A stretch of 47,567 nt of DNA, taken from IMG/VR virus record IMGVR_UViG_2913112809_000003, one strand, 5' to 3'. The DNA is from a virus (lineage: Duplodnaviria > Heunggongvirae > Uroviricota > Caudoviricetes). Both the position numbers and the translations under genes were made by a program. Shown here in pieces: positions 27,113-47,567 of this stretch. Positions within the stretch are counted from its first letter, which is position 1. Every line of letters begins with the position of its first letter. The notes beneath the pieces were generated by a model. That model ran no database searches. It was not told the origin of the DNA and saw nothing but the letters and a program-made list of their open reading frames with translations.

Positions 27113-27192
27113 TGGAGCGGGTCGCGGGAATCGAACCCGCATCATCAGCCTAGAAGGTTGAGCTGAGGTAATAGCCATTATACGATACCCGC
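27113..27192 (-). tRNA. tRNA-like gene, 80 nt, anticodon ambiguous (best fit UCU, Arg)
   Basis: Canonical T-arm GCGGG-TTCGATT-CCCGC, acceptor stem of 6/7 pairs, encoded CCA; an anticodon loop CTTCTAG is only obtained with a mismatched stem and about 5 extra nucleotides 5' of it. Confidence 0.5.
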
Positions 27193-27195
27193 ATA

Positions 27196-27271
<76 letters not shown>

Positions 27272-27439: not shown

Positions 27440-28486
27440 TTAAACACTCAAATCAATTTCATTAACAGTCTGTTTAAATCTGTTTTCCTCAAGCTCCACC
27501 CCAACCGCTTTCCTCCCCAACGACAATGCCGCTTTTATTGTTGAGCCTGAACCCATGAAAAAATCCGCAACCAAATCACCGGGGCGACTGCTGGCAGTAA
27601 TTATCTGACGCAACATATCCGCCGGTTTTTCACAGGGATGTTTGCCGGAGTAATACTGCACTGGCTTGTGCGTCCAGACATCCGTATAAGGAACGGCAGC
27701 CGATACGGAAAAATAACGCCTCAGGGATTTGTACTCCTCCAGCAGACTGACATATTGCCGGTTCAGTTCACTGTATGTGCTGACCAGCTGGTGGTGTGGC
27801 TTTTCCAGTTCACCGCGTTGATGTTTTTCTGCTGCAACACGCGCAAACAACGCCTGCAGTTTTCTGTAATCATCCTCGTTCGGTAACTGCCACTGACTGG
27901 CACCAAACCAGTGCGAAGCCATATTTTTCTTTCCGGTAACTTCCGCTATCTGTTTCGACGTTATCCCCAGTGAATCACGTGCATCACGAAAGTAAGAAAT
28001 CAGCGGGGCCATGACGTGCTGTTTAAGCTCGCGACCCTTTGTCGCGTAGCCGTCATTTTTGGGTTGATATGGTCCCTGATAATGTTCAGCAAACAGAATG
28101 CGCTCTGTTGCCGGGAAATACGCCCGCAGGCTTTCCTTATTGCACCCGTTCCAGCGTCCGGACGGTTTCGCCCAGATAATGTGGTTCAACACATTAAAAC
28201 GTTCACGCATCATGATTTCGATATCAGATGCCAGGCGATGCCCACAGAACAGGTAAAGACTTCCGGCAGGTTTCAGTACCCGCCAGAACTGCGCCAGACA
28301 CTGGTCCAGCCATTTCAGGTAATCATCGTCGCCCTTCCACTGGTTATCCCAGCCTTCGGGCTTCACTTTAAAGTATGGCGGGTCTGTGACTATCAGATCG
28401 ACAGAGTTTTCCGGTAAAGTCTGGATAAATTCCAGGCAATCAGCGTTGATTAATTCACAACTGGATATTTTTACAGTATCAACCAT
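27440..28486 (-). CDS. DNA methyltransferase (beta-class, N6-adenine or N4-cytosine), apparently orphan
   Basis: 348-aa ORF with catalytic motif DPPY near the N-terminus and the S-adenosylmethionine-binding motif FFMGSGST near the C-terminus; no adjacent restriction endonuclease gene. Confidence 0.9.
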   Translation of the reverse strand: MVDTVKISSCELINADCLEFIQTLPENSVDLIVTDPPYFKVKPEGWDNQWKGDDDYLKWLDQCLAQFWRVLKPAGSLYLFCGHRLASDIEIMMRERFNVLNHIIWAKPSGRWNGCNKESLRAYFPATERILFAEHYQGPYQPKNDGYATKGRELKQHVMAPLISYFRDARDSLGITSKQIAEVTGKKNMASHWFGASQWQLPNEDDYRKLQALFARVAAEKHQRGELEKPHHQLVSTYSELNRQYVSLLEEYKSLRRYFSVSAAVPYTDVWTHKPVQYYSGKHPCEKPADMLRQIITASSRPGDLVADFFMGSGSTIKAALSLGRKAVGVELEENRFKQTVNEIDLSV

Positions 28487-32533: not shown

Positions 32534-32794
32534 TCACTCATCTTCAAAAGTAGAAAAACCAGCCTTAAGCACGGTTTCTTTCAGAGACTGCAATGATGTG
32601 ACAAATTCATTTTCGCGCAAAATAAAACCGTCCGTCAGAAGCTCATCCACAAAATAAATTAACGCAGCCCCACTCTTCCTTGGTTGGGATTGTAAACATT
32701 TAATACGGCAGTGACTGACAATAGTTCTATTCTCAACGCGCACAGCATAGAGGCCATTTTCACTAAAAAATTCACGTAATTCTTCGATTTTCAT
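32534..32794 (-). CDS. hypothetical protein
   Basis: Start assigned to the ATG at 32794 with a GGAAGGA site (MKIEELREFF), 86 aa. Confidence 0.5.
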   Translation of the reverse strand: MKIEELREFFSENGLYAVRVENRTIVSHCRIKCLQSQPRKSGAALIYFVDELLTDGFILRENEFVTSLQSLKETVLKAGFSTFEDE

Positions 32795-33034
32795 CTTCAG
32801 AATCCTTCCAGATAAATAGCACTCCCCTGTTCGGGGTCCATCCATCTTCTCCCTGCGCGCTACTCAAAACGGGTGAATTCTAATTAATCTTTATTTCGAA
32901 GCAATCGCAAAAAACAAAATAGAAAATAAAAACAAACACACCAAAAACAACAAATACAACCATATCGAAAATTAATTAACTATTCGGACAGCAGAGCAAT
33001 ATAACTTCAGTTAAAATCATTAATCTCCCTTATT

Positions 33035-33064
33035 CATGAAAAACAAAACCCGCCGAAGCGGGTT
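33035..33064 (-). terminator. intrinsic terminator of the hok transcript
   Basis: Hairpin AACCCGC-ttcg-GCGGGTT followed on the minus strand by TTTTGTTTTT, about 70 nt after the hok stop. Confidence 0.5.
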
Positions 33065-33131
33065 AAGTGCGGGTGCGTTGAGGATGCCTGACACATCAGA
33101 GATGGCGGGGGATTTCTCCCCGCCGAGTCTC

Positions 33132-33287
33132 TTACTCCTCAGATTCGTAAGCTGTGAAGACAGCGACCTCCGTCTGGCCGGTTCGGATTCGTACCTCGCA
33201 AAGGTCTTTCCTCGTTACCAGTGCCGTCACTATGACGGTTAAACAGATGACGATCAGGGCGATTAACATCGCCTTTTGCTGCTTCAT
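33132..33287 (-). CDS. hokD: Hok-family type I toxin (HokD/RelF-like)
   Basis: Encodes MKQQKAMLIALIVICLTVIVTALVTRKDLCEVRIRTGQTEVAVFTAYESEE (51 aa), near-identical to HokD as recalled. Confidence 0.9.
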   Translation of the reverse strand: MKQQKAMLIALIVICLTVIVTALVTRKDLCEVRIRTGQTEVAVFTAYESEE

Positions 33288-33345
33288 AGCCTGCTTCTCC
33301 TTGACCTTTCGGTCCGTAAGAGGCTAACCTACATGTGTCTAGCAT
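33139..33345 (-). CDS. mok-like overlapping reading frame
   Basis: 68-aa ORF in another frame that starts upstream of hok and overlaps it throughout, as mok does in hok/sok loci. Confidence 0.4.
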   Translation of the reverse strand: MLDTCRLASYGPKGQGEAGYEAAKGDVNRPDRHLFNRHSDGTGNEERPLRGTNPNRPDGGRCLHSLRI

Positions 33346-33578
33346 GAAATTGGCCTCAGATTAATGTTAAGCGTCTTGCAGGACGCGTAATGTTAACTGG
33401 GGCTTTTCTCTGTCTGCCTTACAGTGGCATGCCCGAGGCAGACAGCCTCAAGCACCCGCAGCAATTCTACTTAACTATCTTTCTCCCGCAAATCGTTTTT
33501 ATCCCCAGCGGCAAATCGAATACACCACCAGCGCCACCGCCAGTGCAATTCCTACTGTTGTGAATGCCTCAGGCCAGG

Positions 33579-34067
33579 TCATCGCAAAACATCCTCCACG
33601 CCTTTCAACCCGTTCCGCTCCAGATAGCCCATCGCCTTATCTGGCAATTTGCAGTCCGGTTTCGATTTCTTCAGTTGGCTGACTAATTGCTTCACCAGCA
33701 TTGTCAATTCGATAACCTGTTTGCCAGATGTTCGCTCACTACAGCTTATCCAACCATCCGTAGTTACCGAAATTGGCGGCGCGGCATATAGCTTACGGGT
33801 CTGAACACCTGCCCCCTGACATTTCTCTTCCTCAACAAATCCTTCGTAAACGCATTCTCCGCAATCTTCCCATTCTCCCCATTCATCATATTCTGCATCC
33901 CACTGGCGATACTGATATGCCACTGGCTCTGCTTCCAACGATGCCAGCGCAATACGAAACACATTGGCAAGCAGGCTGTTTGAAGATTGGTTATCGTGCG
34001 CCGCATCGCTCAGAAAGCCGGTGATGAATGATTTAATCTCTGCGCTTTCTCTGGTAATAGTTGCCAT
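33579..34067 (-). CDS. hypothetical acidic protein
   Basis: Start assigned to the ATG at 34067 with an AAGGA site (MATITRESAEIK), 162 aa; Trp/Glu-rich. Confidence 0.5.
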   Translation of the reverse strand: MATITRESAEIKSFITGFLSDAAHDNQSSNSLLANVFRIALASLEAEPVAYQYRQWDAEYDEWGEWEDCGECVYEGFVEEEKCQGAGVQTRKLYAAPPISVTTDGWISCSERTSGKQVIELTMLVKQLVSQLKKSKPDCKLPDKAMGYLERNGLKGVEDVLR

Positions 34068-34068
34068 A

Positions 34069-34287
34069 TCAGTTTTCCTTATACGGATTAATTTTATTGT
34101 GCAGTGTGTTGAACGAGGCCCATACCACGTCGTTATACAATTCAATAACTGGCTCAATTATTTTCCCGATTCCCCATACCAGAATTAACGGGGATATCGG
34201 TATCATCAACACGATAAACAGAATGAGAAACAGGAATTCTGTTGTTCGACTTCTTCGCGGATAATTTTTCCTGAATAGTGTAGGCAT
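34069..34287 (-). CDS. small membrane protein
   Basis: 72-aa ORF with an AAGGAG site 7 nt upstream and one strongly hydrophobic helix (FLFLILFIVLMIPISPLILVWGIG). Confidence 0.55.
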   Translation of the reverse strand: MPTLFRKNYPRRSRTTEFLFLILFIVLMIPISPLILVWGIGKIIEPVIELYNDVVWASFNTLHNKINPYKEN

Positions 34288-40436: not shown

Positions 40437-40859
40437 TCCATTTATTGGATTAATTCAATATTCTCGCTGTAGGGGTATAGCCGAGGCCACCAAAGCCCGG
40501 AGGTGGTGAAATAAAACCGGGCGCAACACGAAGGCGCATTTCCGATATCCATAAAGAGTCGGTCTTGTCTGTTAAATTTAAATGGTTGGAGTGCGCCTCC
40601 GGTTGTGAATAACAACACTGCTGTGTGTAGTCTTGGCGGCATCAGTTTTTTCTTGAAGTTCGACTGATGTCCGCCCTTTTTAAAGTGAATTTTGTGATGC
40701 GGTGAATGCGGCTCAGCGCACGCGGAACAGTTAAAAGTCATGTTAGTCCTTATTGGTTTGGGTGGGAAAGCCGACTGTAATTGTTAACTGGTTGCAGTCA
40801 CCTGGAGGCACCAGGCACCGCATCAACAAAGTTCATTTAGTAACCAGGAAGGGAATTAT

Positions 40860-45639: not shown

Positions 45640-45834
45640 ATGAGATATGACAATGTTAAACCATGTCCATTTTGTGGTTGTCCATCAGTAACGGTGAAAG
45701 CCATTTCAGGATATTACCGAGCGAAGTGTAACGGATGCGAATCCCGAACCGGTTATGGTGGAAGTGAAAAAGAAGCACTCGAAAGATGGAATAAACGAAC
45801 CACTGGGAATAATAATGGAGGTGTTCATGTATAA
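45640..45834 (+). CDS. ralR: restriction alleviation protein RalR (Lar)
   Basis: 64-aa product MRYDNVKPCPFCGCPSVTVKAISGYYRAKCNGCESRTGYGG... matches RalR as recalled. Confidence 0.9.
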   Translation: MRYDNVKPCPFCGCPSVTVKAISGYYRAKCNGCESRTGYGGSEKEALERWNKRTTGNNNGGVHV

Positions 45835-46015
45835 AATTACCGCCACTATTGAAAAGGAAGGAGGCACTCCTACTAACTGGACAAGATATTCAAAATCTAA
45901 ACTAACGAAATCAGAATGCGAAAAAATGCTCTCAGGTAAAAAAGAAGCAGGCGTTTCCAGAGAGCAGAAAGTAAAACTGATAAATTTTAATTGCGAGAAA
46001 CTTCAGTCCTCGTGA
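45827..46015 (+). CDS. YdaC-like small protein
   Basis: ATG at 45827 with a GGAGGT site, overlapping the ralR stop; 62 aa (MYKITATIEKEGG...). Confidence 0.6.
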   Translation: MYKITATIEKEGGTPTNWTRYSKSKLTKSECEKMLSGKKEAGVSREQKVKLINFNCEKLQSS

Positions 46016-46331: not shown

Positions 46332-47567
46332 ATGTCTAAATTACCAACAGGTGTCGAGATTCGAGGTAAATACATTCGCATCTGGTTCATGTTTCGAGGA
46401 AAACGATGTCGGGAAACATTGAAAGGCTGGGAGGTTACTAACAGTAACATTAAAAAGGCCGGAAATTTAAGAGCGTTGATAGTTCATGAAATCAACTCCG
46501 GTGAATTTGAGTATTTAAGACGTTTTCCCCAGTCCAGTACTGGGGCAAAAATGGTGACAACGAGGTTCATAAAAACGTTCGGCGAGCTTTGTGATATCTG
46601 GACAAAAATTAAAGAAACAGAGTTAACAACAAACACAATGAAGAAAACGAAATCACAATTAAAAACACTCAGGATAATAATTTGTGAGAGTACCCCGATA
46701 TCACATATTCGTTATAGCGATATCTTAAACTACCGGAATGAACTGCTGCATGGAGAAACGCTTTACCTGGATAATCCAAGATCCAACAAAAAAGGAAGAA
46801 CCGTGCGCACAGTTGATAACTATATTGCCCTGCTCTGTTCGTTGTTACGTTTTGCGTATCAGTCGGGATTTATATCAACCAAACCATTTGAAGGAGTAAA
46901 AAAATTACAGCGAAACAGAATAAAGCCTGATCCGTTATCTAAAACAGAATTCAATGCATTAATGGAAAGTGAAAAAGGACAGAGCCAGAACTTGTGGAAA
47001 TTTGCCGTTTACTCCGGGCTTCGTCACGGGGAACTGGCTGCTCTGGCGTGGGAGGATGTGGATTTCGAGAAGGGAATTGTGAATGTCAGAAGAAACCTGA
47101 CGATACTTGATATGTTCGGTCCCCCAAAAACAAATGCGGGGATCCGGACGGTAACACTACTACAGCCTGCTCTTGAAGCACTGAAGAAGCAATACAAACT
47201 GACCGGGCATCATCGCAAAAGCGAAATCACCTTTTATCATCGGGAGTACGGCAGAACCGAAAAGCAAAAACTGCATTTTGTTTTCATGCCCAGAGTGTGT
47301 AACGGAAAACAGAAACCTTATTACTCGGTAAGCAGTTTGGGTGCGAGATGGAATGCAGCAGTAAAACGTGCTGGTATTCGCCGCCGTAATCCGTACCATA
47401 CGCGACATACTTTTGCCTGCTGGCTGTTGACGGCAGGAGCGAACCCGGCATTTATAGCCAGCCAGATGGGGCATGAAACTGCGCAGATGGTGTATGAAAT
47501 TTACGGCATGTGGATTGAGGACATGAACGACGAACAGGTAGCCATGTTGAATGCGCGGTTATCGTAG
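46332..47567 (+). CDS. intR: tyrosine integrase (Rac IntR-like)
   Basis: 411-aa ORF ending at the window edge; C-terminal catalytic region HTRHTFACWLL...Y typical of lambda-family integrases. Confidence 0.95.
   Translation: MSKLPTGVEIRGKYIRIWFMFRGKRCRETLKGWEVTNSNIKKAGNLRALIVHEINSGEFEYLRRFPQSSTGAKMVTTRFIKTFGELCDIWTKIKETELTTNTMKKTKSQLKTLRIIICESTPISHIRYSDILNYRNELLHGETLYLDNPRSNKKGRTVRTVDNYIALLCSLLRFAYQSGFISTKPFEGVKKLQRNRIKPDPLSKTEFNALMESEKGQSQNLWKFAVYSGLRHGELAALAWEDVDFEKGIVNVRRNLTILDMFGPPKTNAGIRTVTLLQPALEALKKQYKLTGHHRKSEITFYHREYGRTEKQKLHFVFMPRVCNGKQKPYYSVSSLGARWNAAVKRAGIRRRNPYHTRHTFACWLLTAGANPAFIASQMGHETAQMVYEIYGMWIEDMNDEQVAMLNARLS

Follow-up and report, generated by a model that had tools for sequence, protein, structure and literature searches.

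Is the small Hok-family gene that lies between the replication genes and Q of a tailed-phage genome the visible part of a whole toxin-antitoxin module or the remains of one, and how should its position without the relBE genes, which accompany hokD in Escherichia coli K-12, be read? The window analyzed here is the entire stretch of 47,567 nt of Caudoviricetes virus DNA in IMG/VR record IMGVR_UViG_2913112809_000003, and it is a Rac/Qin-like lambdoid prophage. A preliminary description of this DNA had proposed a hok/mok type I toxin module, and the proposal stands up well: the Hok open reading frame, the mok frame, a leader matching the Rfam model RF01794 and a predicted Sok RNA are all present. 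Sequence comparison makes us highly confident that the locus is a complete, intact R1-type hok/mok/sok cassette, that is, a type I toxin-antitoxin system of the hokD/hokW type. By analogy it most likely works as the cassette of plasmid R1 does; we infer its transcription, processing, toxicity and biological role.

Toxin frame, leader and antisense RNA

The hok coding sequence (33132-33287, minus strand; 51 aa) follows a Shine-Dalgarno (SD) sequence, AAGGAG, at 33297-33302. Its product, MKQQKAMLIALIVICLTVIVTALVTRKDLCEVRIRTGQTEVAVFTAYESEE, matches both the Pfam family HOK_GEF (PF01848; E=1.2e-23, 82.9 bits against a cut-off of 22) and PHROG 251, "MokW-like host killing" (6.4e-33), matches that bear out the 51-aa Hok-family toxin named at the outset. 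The protein is 98% identical to HokD of K-12 and 94% identical to HokW of phage 933W, and exactly this sequence is indexed in 3434 blocks of public assemblies. A covariance-model search had been among the checks suggested beforehand, and it finds RF01794, which bears the name "sok" yet models the hok mRNA leader: a 173-nt leader (33285-33457, minus strand) aligns with the full model, positions 1-157, at 111.1 bits (E=1.6e-24; gathering threshold 59 bits). Given the Pfam and PHROG matches, the identity to HokD and HokW and the score of the leader, the hok/mok/sok identity of the locus is far beyond chance. Besides this model, a permissive Rfam scan of 32800-33700 brought up isrK (20 bits), rsmX (22 bits), two CRISPR repeat models and a snoRNA, all of which were rejected as sub-threshold chance matches.

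One feature of the toxin gene touches on recoding. The Tyr47 codon (33146-33149, minus strand) stands in a UACG context, the recognition motif of TadA. Some hok transcripts are reported to undergo A-to-I editing in such a context; the editing recodes Tyr to Cys, and K-12 hokD was reported as 6% edited (PMC12214031). Because the context of Tyr47 resembles that of the edited transcripts, the toxin encoded here may be partly recoded at this residue.

The predicted hok promoter lies at 33464-33491 on the minus strand (-35 TTGCGG, 33486-33491; 16-nt spacer; -10 TAGAAT, 33464-33469) and would start transcription at G33457; its position matches those in 933W and strain DCE7 in the alignment, and the predicted 5' end of the mRNA coincides with position 1 of RF01794. 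With the 5' end set by the Rfam model and the 3' end by the terminator, the full-length hok (mok-hok) mRNA is predicted to span 33038-33457 (minus strand), or about 420 nt. At its 5' end stands the translational activator tac, GGGTGCTTGAGG (33446-33457, minus strand), followed by a conserved long leader hairpin, CTGTCTGCC ... GGCAGACAG (33410-33445, minus strand), found by the Rfam model and by RNAalifold; the preliminary description had been right about the existence of this hairpin, and its placement at about 33403-33438 was off by some 7 nt. Further along the same strand come the ucb, or anti-SD, box AAGCCCC (33399-33405) and the dcb box GCCTC (33320-33324), the predicted partner of the mok SD GAGGC once the RNA is truncated and open.

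Downstream of hok, a GC-rich 3' stem-loop, GGCGGGGAGAAATCCCCCGCC (33104-33124, minus strand), appears in the predicted folds upstream of the fold-back inhibitory element fbi, CCTCAACGCACCC (33071-33083, minus strand), which is complementary to tac. The stem-loop presumably protects the 3' end of the processed mRNA, a role taken from R1 (PMC9841398). The fbi element is conserved in hok loci of Escherichia, Shigella, Kluyvera, Pseudocitrobacter and Citrobacter. An intrinsic terminator had been noted earlier and is present at 33038-33064 (minus strand), with a stem at 33047-33064 and a T run to about 33038; it forms the downstream edge of the cassette, homology with other prophages and with K-12 stopping at 33039-33045. 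Directly 3' of this terminator lies a spacer of 27% GC (32900-33049) that is T-rich on the minus strand, and a 27-codon, all-hydrophobic open reading frame there (32880-32963) is probably an artefact of the T-richness.

The overlapping mok-like frame of the earlier reading is found at 33139-33345 on the minus strand (68 codons; ATG 33343-33345, stop 33139-33141), with the SD sequence GAGG at 33354-33357, 8 nt upstream of the ATG. It runs over the hok SD and start, and its ATG lies 58 nt 5' of the hok ATG, so that the two genes are out of frame. The same offset occurs in several Kluyvera and E. coli copies and in R1, where mok starts at T117/G118 and hok at G176 (PMC9841398), whereas 933W, strain DCE7 and most chromosomal homologues have 57 nt, which makes their Mok an in-frame, N-terminally extended Hok. 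In the alignment, the 57-nt sequences read GAAAGG-CAAGG where the window reads GAAAGGTCAAGG, with an additional T at about 33303 in the hairpin before the hok SD, whereby the sok -35 becomes TTGACC; the small hairpin is kept either way (GACC/GGUC in the window, UGCC/GGCA in the 57-nt sequences). Each class recurs among the 47 hok loci compared, and the frame of mok is therefore not conserved; with R1 itself at 58 nt, we ruled out that an out-of-frame mok is an anomaly of the window. This agrees with the established view that translation of mok matters and the Mok product does not (PMC9841398). The 57-nt and 58-nt states might differ in toxin output or form.

On the plus strand, where a Sok-like antisense RNA had been expected at about 33300-33400, alignment to the annotated sokW of phage 933W places a predicted Sok of 71 nt at 33337-33407. 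It is predicted to fold (-28.7 kcal/mol, z = -5.1) into a long hairpin that is preceded by 15 single-stranded nucleotides at the 5' end and followed by UUUU; this 5' tail (33337-33351) covers the mok start codon (33343-33345), and the 5' arm of the hairpin (33352-33359) covers the mok SD (33354-33357). The sok promoter predicted by positional homology to 933W (33301-33330, plus strand) joins a -35 TTGACC (33301-33306) to a -10 TAACCT (33325-33330) and overlaps the hok SD on the opposite strand; its spacer is 18 nt long because of the 1-nt insertion relative to 933W. The preliminary description had called this promoter not obvious, aptly so: it fails a consensus scan, which found zero sigma-70 sites on either strand of 32900-33650. 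Since that scan missed both promoters, those of hok and sok alike were placed by homology. At the aligned position equivalent to the predicted sok -10, 933W has an identical hexamer. In the hokW-sokW study, mutation of the sokW -10 element abolished antitoxin activity (PMC8621323), and the alignment suggests that TAACCT is the element mutated there.

Predicted folding and mode of action

Folded in silico, the full-length RNA (33457 to 33038, 420 nt) has a minimum free energy (MFE) of -175.5 kcal/mol with its 5' and 3' ends paired. All 12 bases of tac pair with fbi at probabilities of 0.97-1.0, forcing fbi to remain unpaired costs 15.7 kcal/mol, and the GCC.CCAG bases (33397-33403) that overlap ucb pair with the mok SD region. 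In the first 35 nt of the nascent RNA, tac pairs with 33426-33439 to form a hairpin of -21.2 kcal/mol, which corresponds to the metastable hairpin of R1 (PMC9841398). For the truncated RNA, from which fbi has been removed, the MFE structure (-142.5 kcal/mol) keeps the metastable hairpin instead of tac-ucb; enforcing tac-ucb gives -142.1 kcal/mol, a gap of 0.4 kcal/mol, and a fold with the sok-target hairpin and the SD-dcb stem that equals the Rfam consensus structure.

Comparison across loci recovers the same pairings. An RNAalifold consensus of 16 leaders, drawn from Escherichia, Kluyvera, Pseudocitrobacter, Citrobacter, Photorhabdus, Pantoea and an R1-type plasmid, contains tac-ucb, the long hairpin and an invariant GAGGC/GCCUC (SD-dcb) stem. 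One pair of the long hairpin covaries among these leaders (AU, GC, UA; alignment columns 15-63), and complementarity of tac and fbi is kept in 21 of the 23 loci with a detected tac motif. Because tac is nearly invariant in this sample, tac-fbi and tac-ucb show little covariation, and support for the tac pairings therefore comes from conservation and energy. Opposite the Sok tail, the loop includes the sequence CUAG, a match to the YUNR U-turn motif of R1 (Gerdes laboratory).

The hok/mok/sok locus of plasmid R1 (parB) has the pairings predicted here, of tac with fbi, ucb with SD, tac with ucb and SD with dcb, and the same out-of-frame mok 58 nt upstream; its Sok, like the one predicted for the window, has a 5' tail and a hairpin, with a promoter overlapping the hok SD. 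The two differ in their carriers, a plasmid and a prophage, and in a GC-rich insert that the Sok hairpin of the window has in addition to what is found in R1. At the protein level the two are distant: HokW, a close relative of the Hok encoded here, is 44% identical to R1 Hok (PMC8621323).

Operating in the R1 manner, a weak promoter would yield a stable mRNA of about 420 nt, with tac held in the metastable 5' hairpin during synthesis. In the finished transcript, tac would pair with the 3' fbi and ucb would hide the mok ribosome-binding site, and because of these two interactions the full-length RNA would be neither translatable nor bound by Sok. Slow 3' trimming would then remove fbi and let tac move to ucb, exposing both the mok ribosome-binding site and the Sok target. 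Ribosomes on mok would traverse the hok ribosome-binding site and so make hok translation possible; Hok would enter the inner membrane and collapse the membrane potential. The unstable 71-nt Sok from the opposite strand would pair with the mok start region and block translation of mok, and hence of hok, and RNase III would cut the Sok-mRNA duplex. Hok would be made once the supply of Sok stops or is outrun, either by loss of the element or by prophage induction with read-through from pR.

Prophage setting, cassette borders and relatives

The integrase occupies the right end of the window (46332-47567); the E. coli genomes that match best have its equivalent, intR, beside ttcA. The stretch at 42.1-46.0 kb contains recET and ralR/RalA. 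From the replication genes, the order runs through the hok cassette, a Rem homologue (32537-32794), a 92-aa open reading frame, DUF968/YdfU and RusA to Q, past which stand a DNA methyltransferase and two tRNAs. This order justifies the label "nin-like region" given earlier to the site of the module, which falls between the replication genes and Q with hok, rem, ydfU and Q arranged as in K-12 Qin.

Homology to six other prophages with an identical Hok begins at 33476-33504 and ends at 33039-33045, and the upstream neighbors of the cassette vary among the six. With shared homology starting and stopping at its edges and with differing upstream neighbors, the module behaves as a moron, a self-contained cassette on the minus strand that measures about 465 bp (about 33039-33504). 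The preliminary description had located the module correctly and drawn it too small, at 33035-33440: tac lies at 33446-33457, the hok promoter reaches 33491, and the shared block extends from 33039 to 33476-33504. In many genomes an identical Hok is again found in this gene context.

The lack of relB- or relE-like genes beside hok, remarked upon earlier, is borne out by tblastn of the K-12 RelB and RelE proteins against the whole window, which gives chance matches only (best E 0.25 and 2.3). In place of the relBE-hokD operon arrangement of K-12 Qin, the window has the leader where relE would be. The K-12 gene, hokD (relF), sits in the same slot, with hok, rem, ydfU/DUF968 and Q, and its toxin is 98% identical; its nucleotide identity to the window is 97%, only over 33039-33301, a segment that begins 14 nt before the ATG and includes fbi and the terminator. 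At the point where this homology ends, 14 nt upstream of the hok ATG, relE begins. Because homology ends at 33301, K-12 hokD is without tac, ucb, the mok start, the Sok target and the sok promoter, and the literature treats it as a gene that rearrangement has inactivated (PMC12214031). The window has the complete version of the locus that is truncated in K-12.

Leader-containing copies, defined by coverage of at least 80% of the 521-bp cassette with the leader included, are present in 3817 of the 5426 complete E. coli genomes (about 70%), and the relE-hokD junction in 1164. By these counts, the arrangement without relBE is the norm and the relBE-hokD of K-12 a rearranged exception. Sequence closely like the 3' end of K-12 relE also lies upstream of hok in an E. 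coli locus (L008) and, upstream of position 701, in a locus of Kluyvera sp. CHPC 1.2972 (L029); with the latter, the relE-hokD junction is not confined to E. coli.

The nearest characterized relative is hokW-mokW-sokW of 933W and Sakai Sp5, which is 91.4% identical over the aligned 88% of the 521-bp query (94% for the toxin) and for which mokW, hokW and sokW are annotated in the 933W record. Both cassettes are carried by lambdoid phages and have in common the sequences of the leader, the predicted Sok hairpin, the putative sok -10, tac and fbi. They differ in position (near the right end of the 933W genome record as against the nin region of the window), in the frame of mok (mokW is in frame with hokW at 57 nt, and the window mok is put out of frame at 58 nt by the 1-nt insertion) and in the 3' terminator region, which in 933W is not homologous. 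The 5' tails of the two Sok RNAs also differ at several positions, and cross-repression between them is for that reason not assured. The study of the Sp5 locus presents hokW-sokW as a type I toxin-antitoxin system with an RNA antitoxin, established by experiment and partly dependent on RNase III and Hfq; mitomycin C lowered sokW and raised HokW, and deletion of hokW-sokW halved phage release (PMC8621323).

Function of the cassette and its surroundings

Could so complete a cassette nevertheless be silent, like hokA, hokC, hokD and hokE of K-12, and simply be carried along with the prophage? Most chromosomal hok loci of K-12 are reported to be inactivated by IS elements or rearrangement (PMC12214031), and decay is also visible among the homologues compared here: one (L007) is without tac, one (L045) has a frameshifted Hok, and in two (L008 and L029) relE replaces the leader. 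To these precedents can be added that the hok and sok promoters of the window are both weak by consensus. An inactive remnant seems very unlikely to us all the same. The hok locus is neither truncated nor interrupted by an IS element, a frameshift or a stop codon; all of its regulatory boxes are intact, with R1-like pairing in silico; the Hok frame is identical to a protein in thousands of assemblies; and the close homologue hokW-sokW is functional (PMC8621323). The preliminary description had held that disrupted mRNA fold elements would point to a remnant. All of them are intact in silico, and we rejected a decayed remnant with zero elements missing or disrupted. An intact sequence is no guarantee of R1-like addiction, because chromosomal hokA, hokB and hokC gave no post-segregational killing in earlier work cited in bioRxiv 10.1101/2025.08.07.668861.

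Candidate roles of a working cassette would include prophage retention, the exclusion of competing phages and, as with hokW-sokW, assistance in lysis at induction. That its main role would be that of a phage-lifecycle or defense device, and not addiction, we regard as quite possible while stopping short of favoring it; such a role leaves the molecular mechanism the same as in the R1-type explanation. As a lifecycle device, the cassette would be swept by pR read-through on induction, Sok would be outrun, and Hok would aid early lysis and release as for hokW-sokW, although hokW is placed elsewhere in 933W/Sp5, near the right end of the record and not in the nin region. As a defense device it would abort infection by other phages. 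The variable cargo directly upstream of the cassette in related prophages (AAA_15 with RloB, methyltransferases) speaks for roles of this kind, but hok genes, while reported to be enriched in prophages, showed no enrichment next to defense systems (bioRxiv 10.1101/2025.08.07.668861). Two further readings strike us as improbable. In one, the cassette would serve to time the phage lifecycle and not for addiction: placed within the delayed-early operon directly upstream of Q, it might on induction be read through by N-antiterminated transcription, flooding hok RNA past Sok and priming the membrane for lysis. In the other, the 1-base indel that toggles the mok frame would also alter how much toxin is made, or in which form.

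The intact R1-type cassette favored above belongs to a class of elements already known, and it stands where such elements are known to occur. It has little discovery value: hokD-type leader cassettes are common in E. coli and annotated in 933W, and a close homologue has been characterized. Its value is for annotation: the locus that K-12 has in truncated form is complete in the window, its mok, predicted Sok and RNA-switch elements are mapped to the base, and the notion of relBE as a regular companion of hokD is set right. A lysogen of the prophage would be a reasonable system for the function of a nin-region hok/sok during induction.

Several neighboring features deserve mention in their own right. 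Set against window positions 33580-34200, three of the prophages with an identical Hok (L059, L062 and L064, positions 1-2300) carry differing cargo directly upstream of the cassette, which in this group includes an AAA_15 ATPase with RloB, methyltransferases and a solute-binding protein. The Rem-DUF968-RusA-Q block downstream is conserved despite this variable cargo, and the upstream position looks like a variable moron or defense slot with the hok cassette as its border. In the window, a hydrophobic 27-aa open reading frame, MTWPEAFTTVGIALAVALVVYSICRWG (33499-33582, minus strand), has an ATGA overlap with the stop of an upstream 192-aa gene and ends just short of the hok promoter; it may be a small membrane protein, and a similar frame is present, unannotated, in 933W.

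Toward the late region, a 348-aa DNA methyltransferase gene (27440-28486, minus strand) and genes for tRNA-Arg(TCT) and tRNA-Thr(TGT) (27113-27271, minus strand) follow Q and precede the lysis genes. This Q/methyltransferase/tRNA layout resembles that of Stx-phage late regions, and no toxin genes were seen in it. At 40622-40676 (plus strand), in a region homologous to the dicF-dicB interval of K-12 Qin, lies a DicF-like small RNA (Rfam RF00039; 42.8 bits, E=2.7e-7, just under the gathering score of 48), with a sub-threshold STnc100 match beside it (40688-40830). A second type I toxin-antitoxin element is found at 45833-46011 (minus strand), next to the recET-like genes: a full-length Rfam match to RalA, the antitoxin RNA of the RalR DNase toxin of Rac, at 219 bits against a gathering score of 170.
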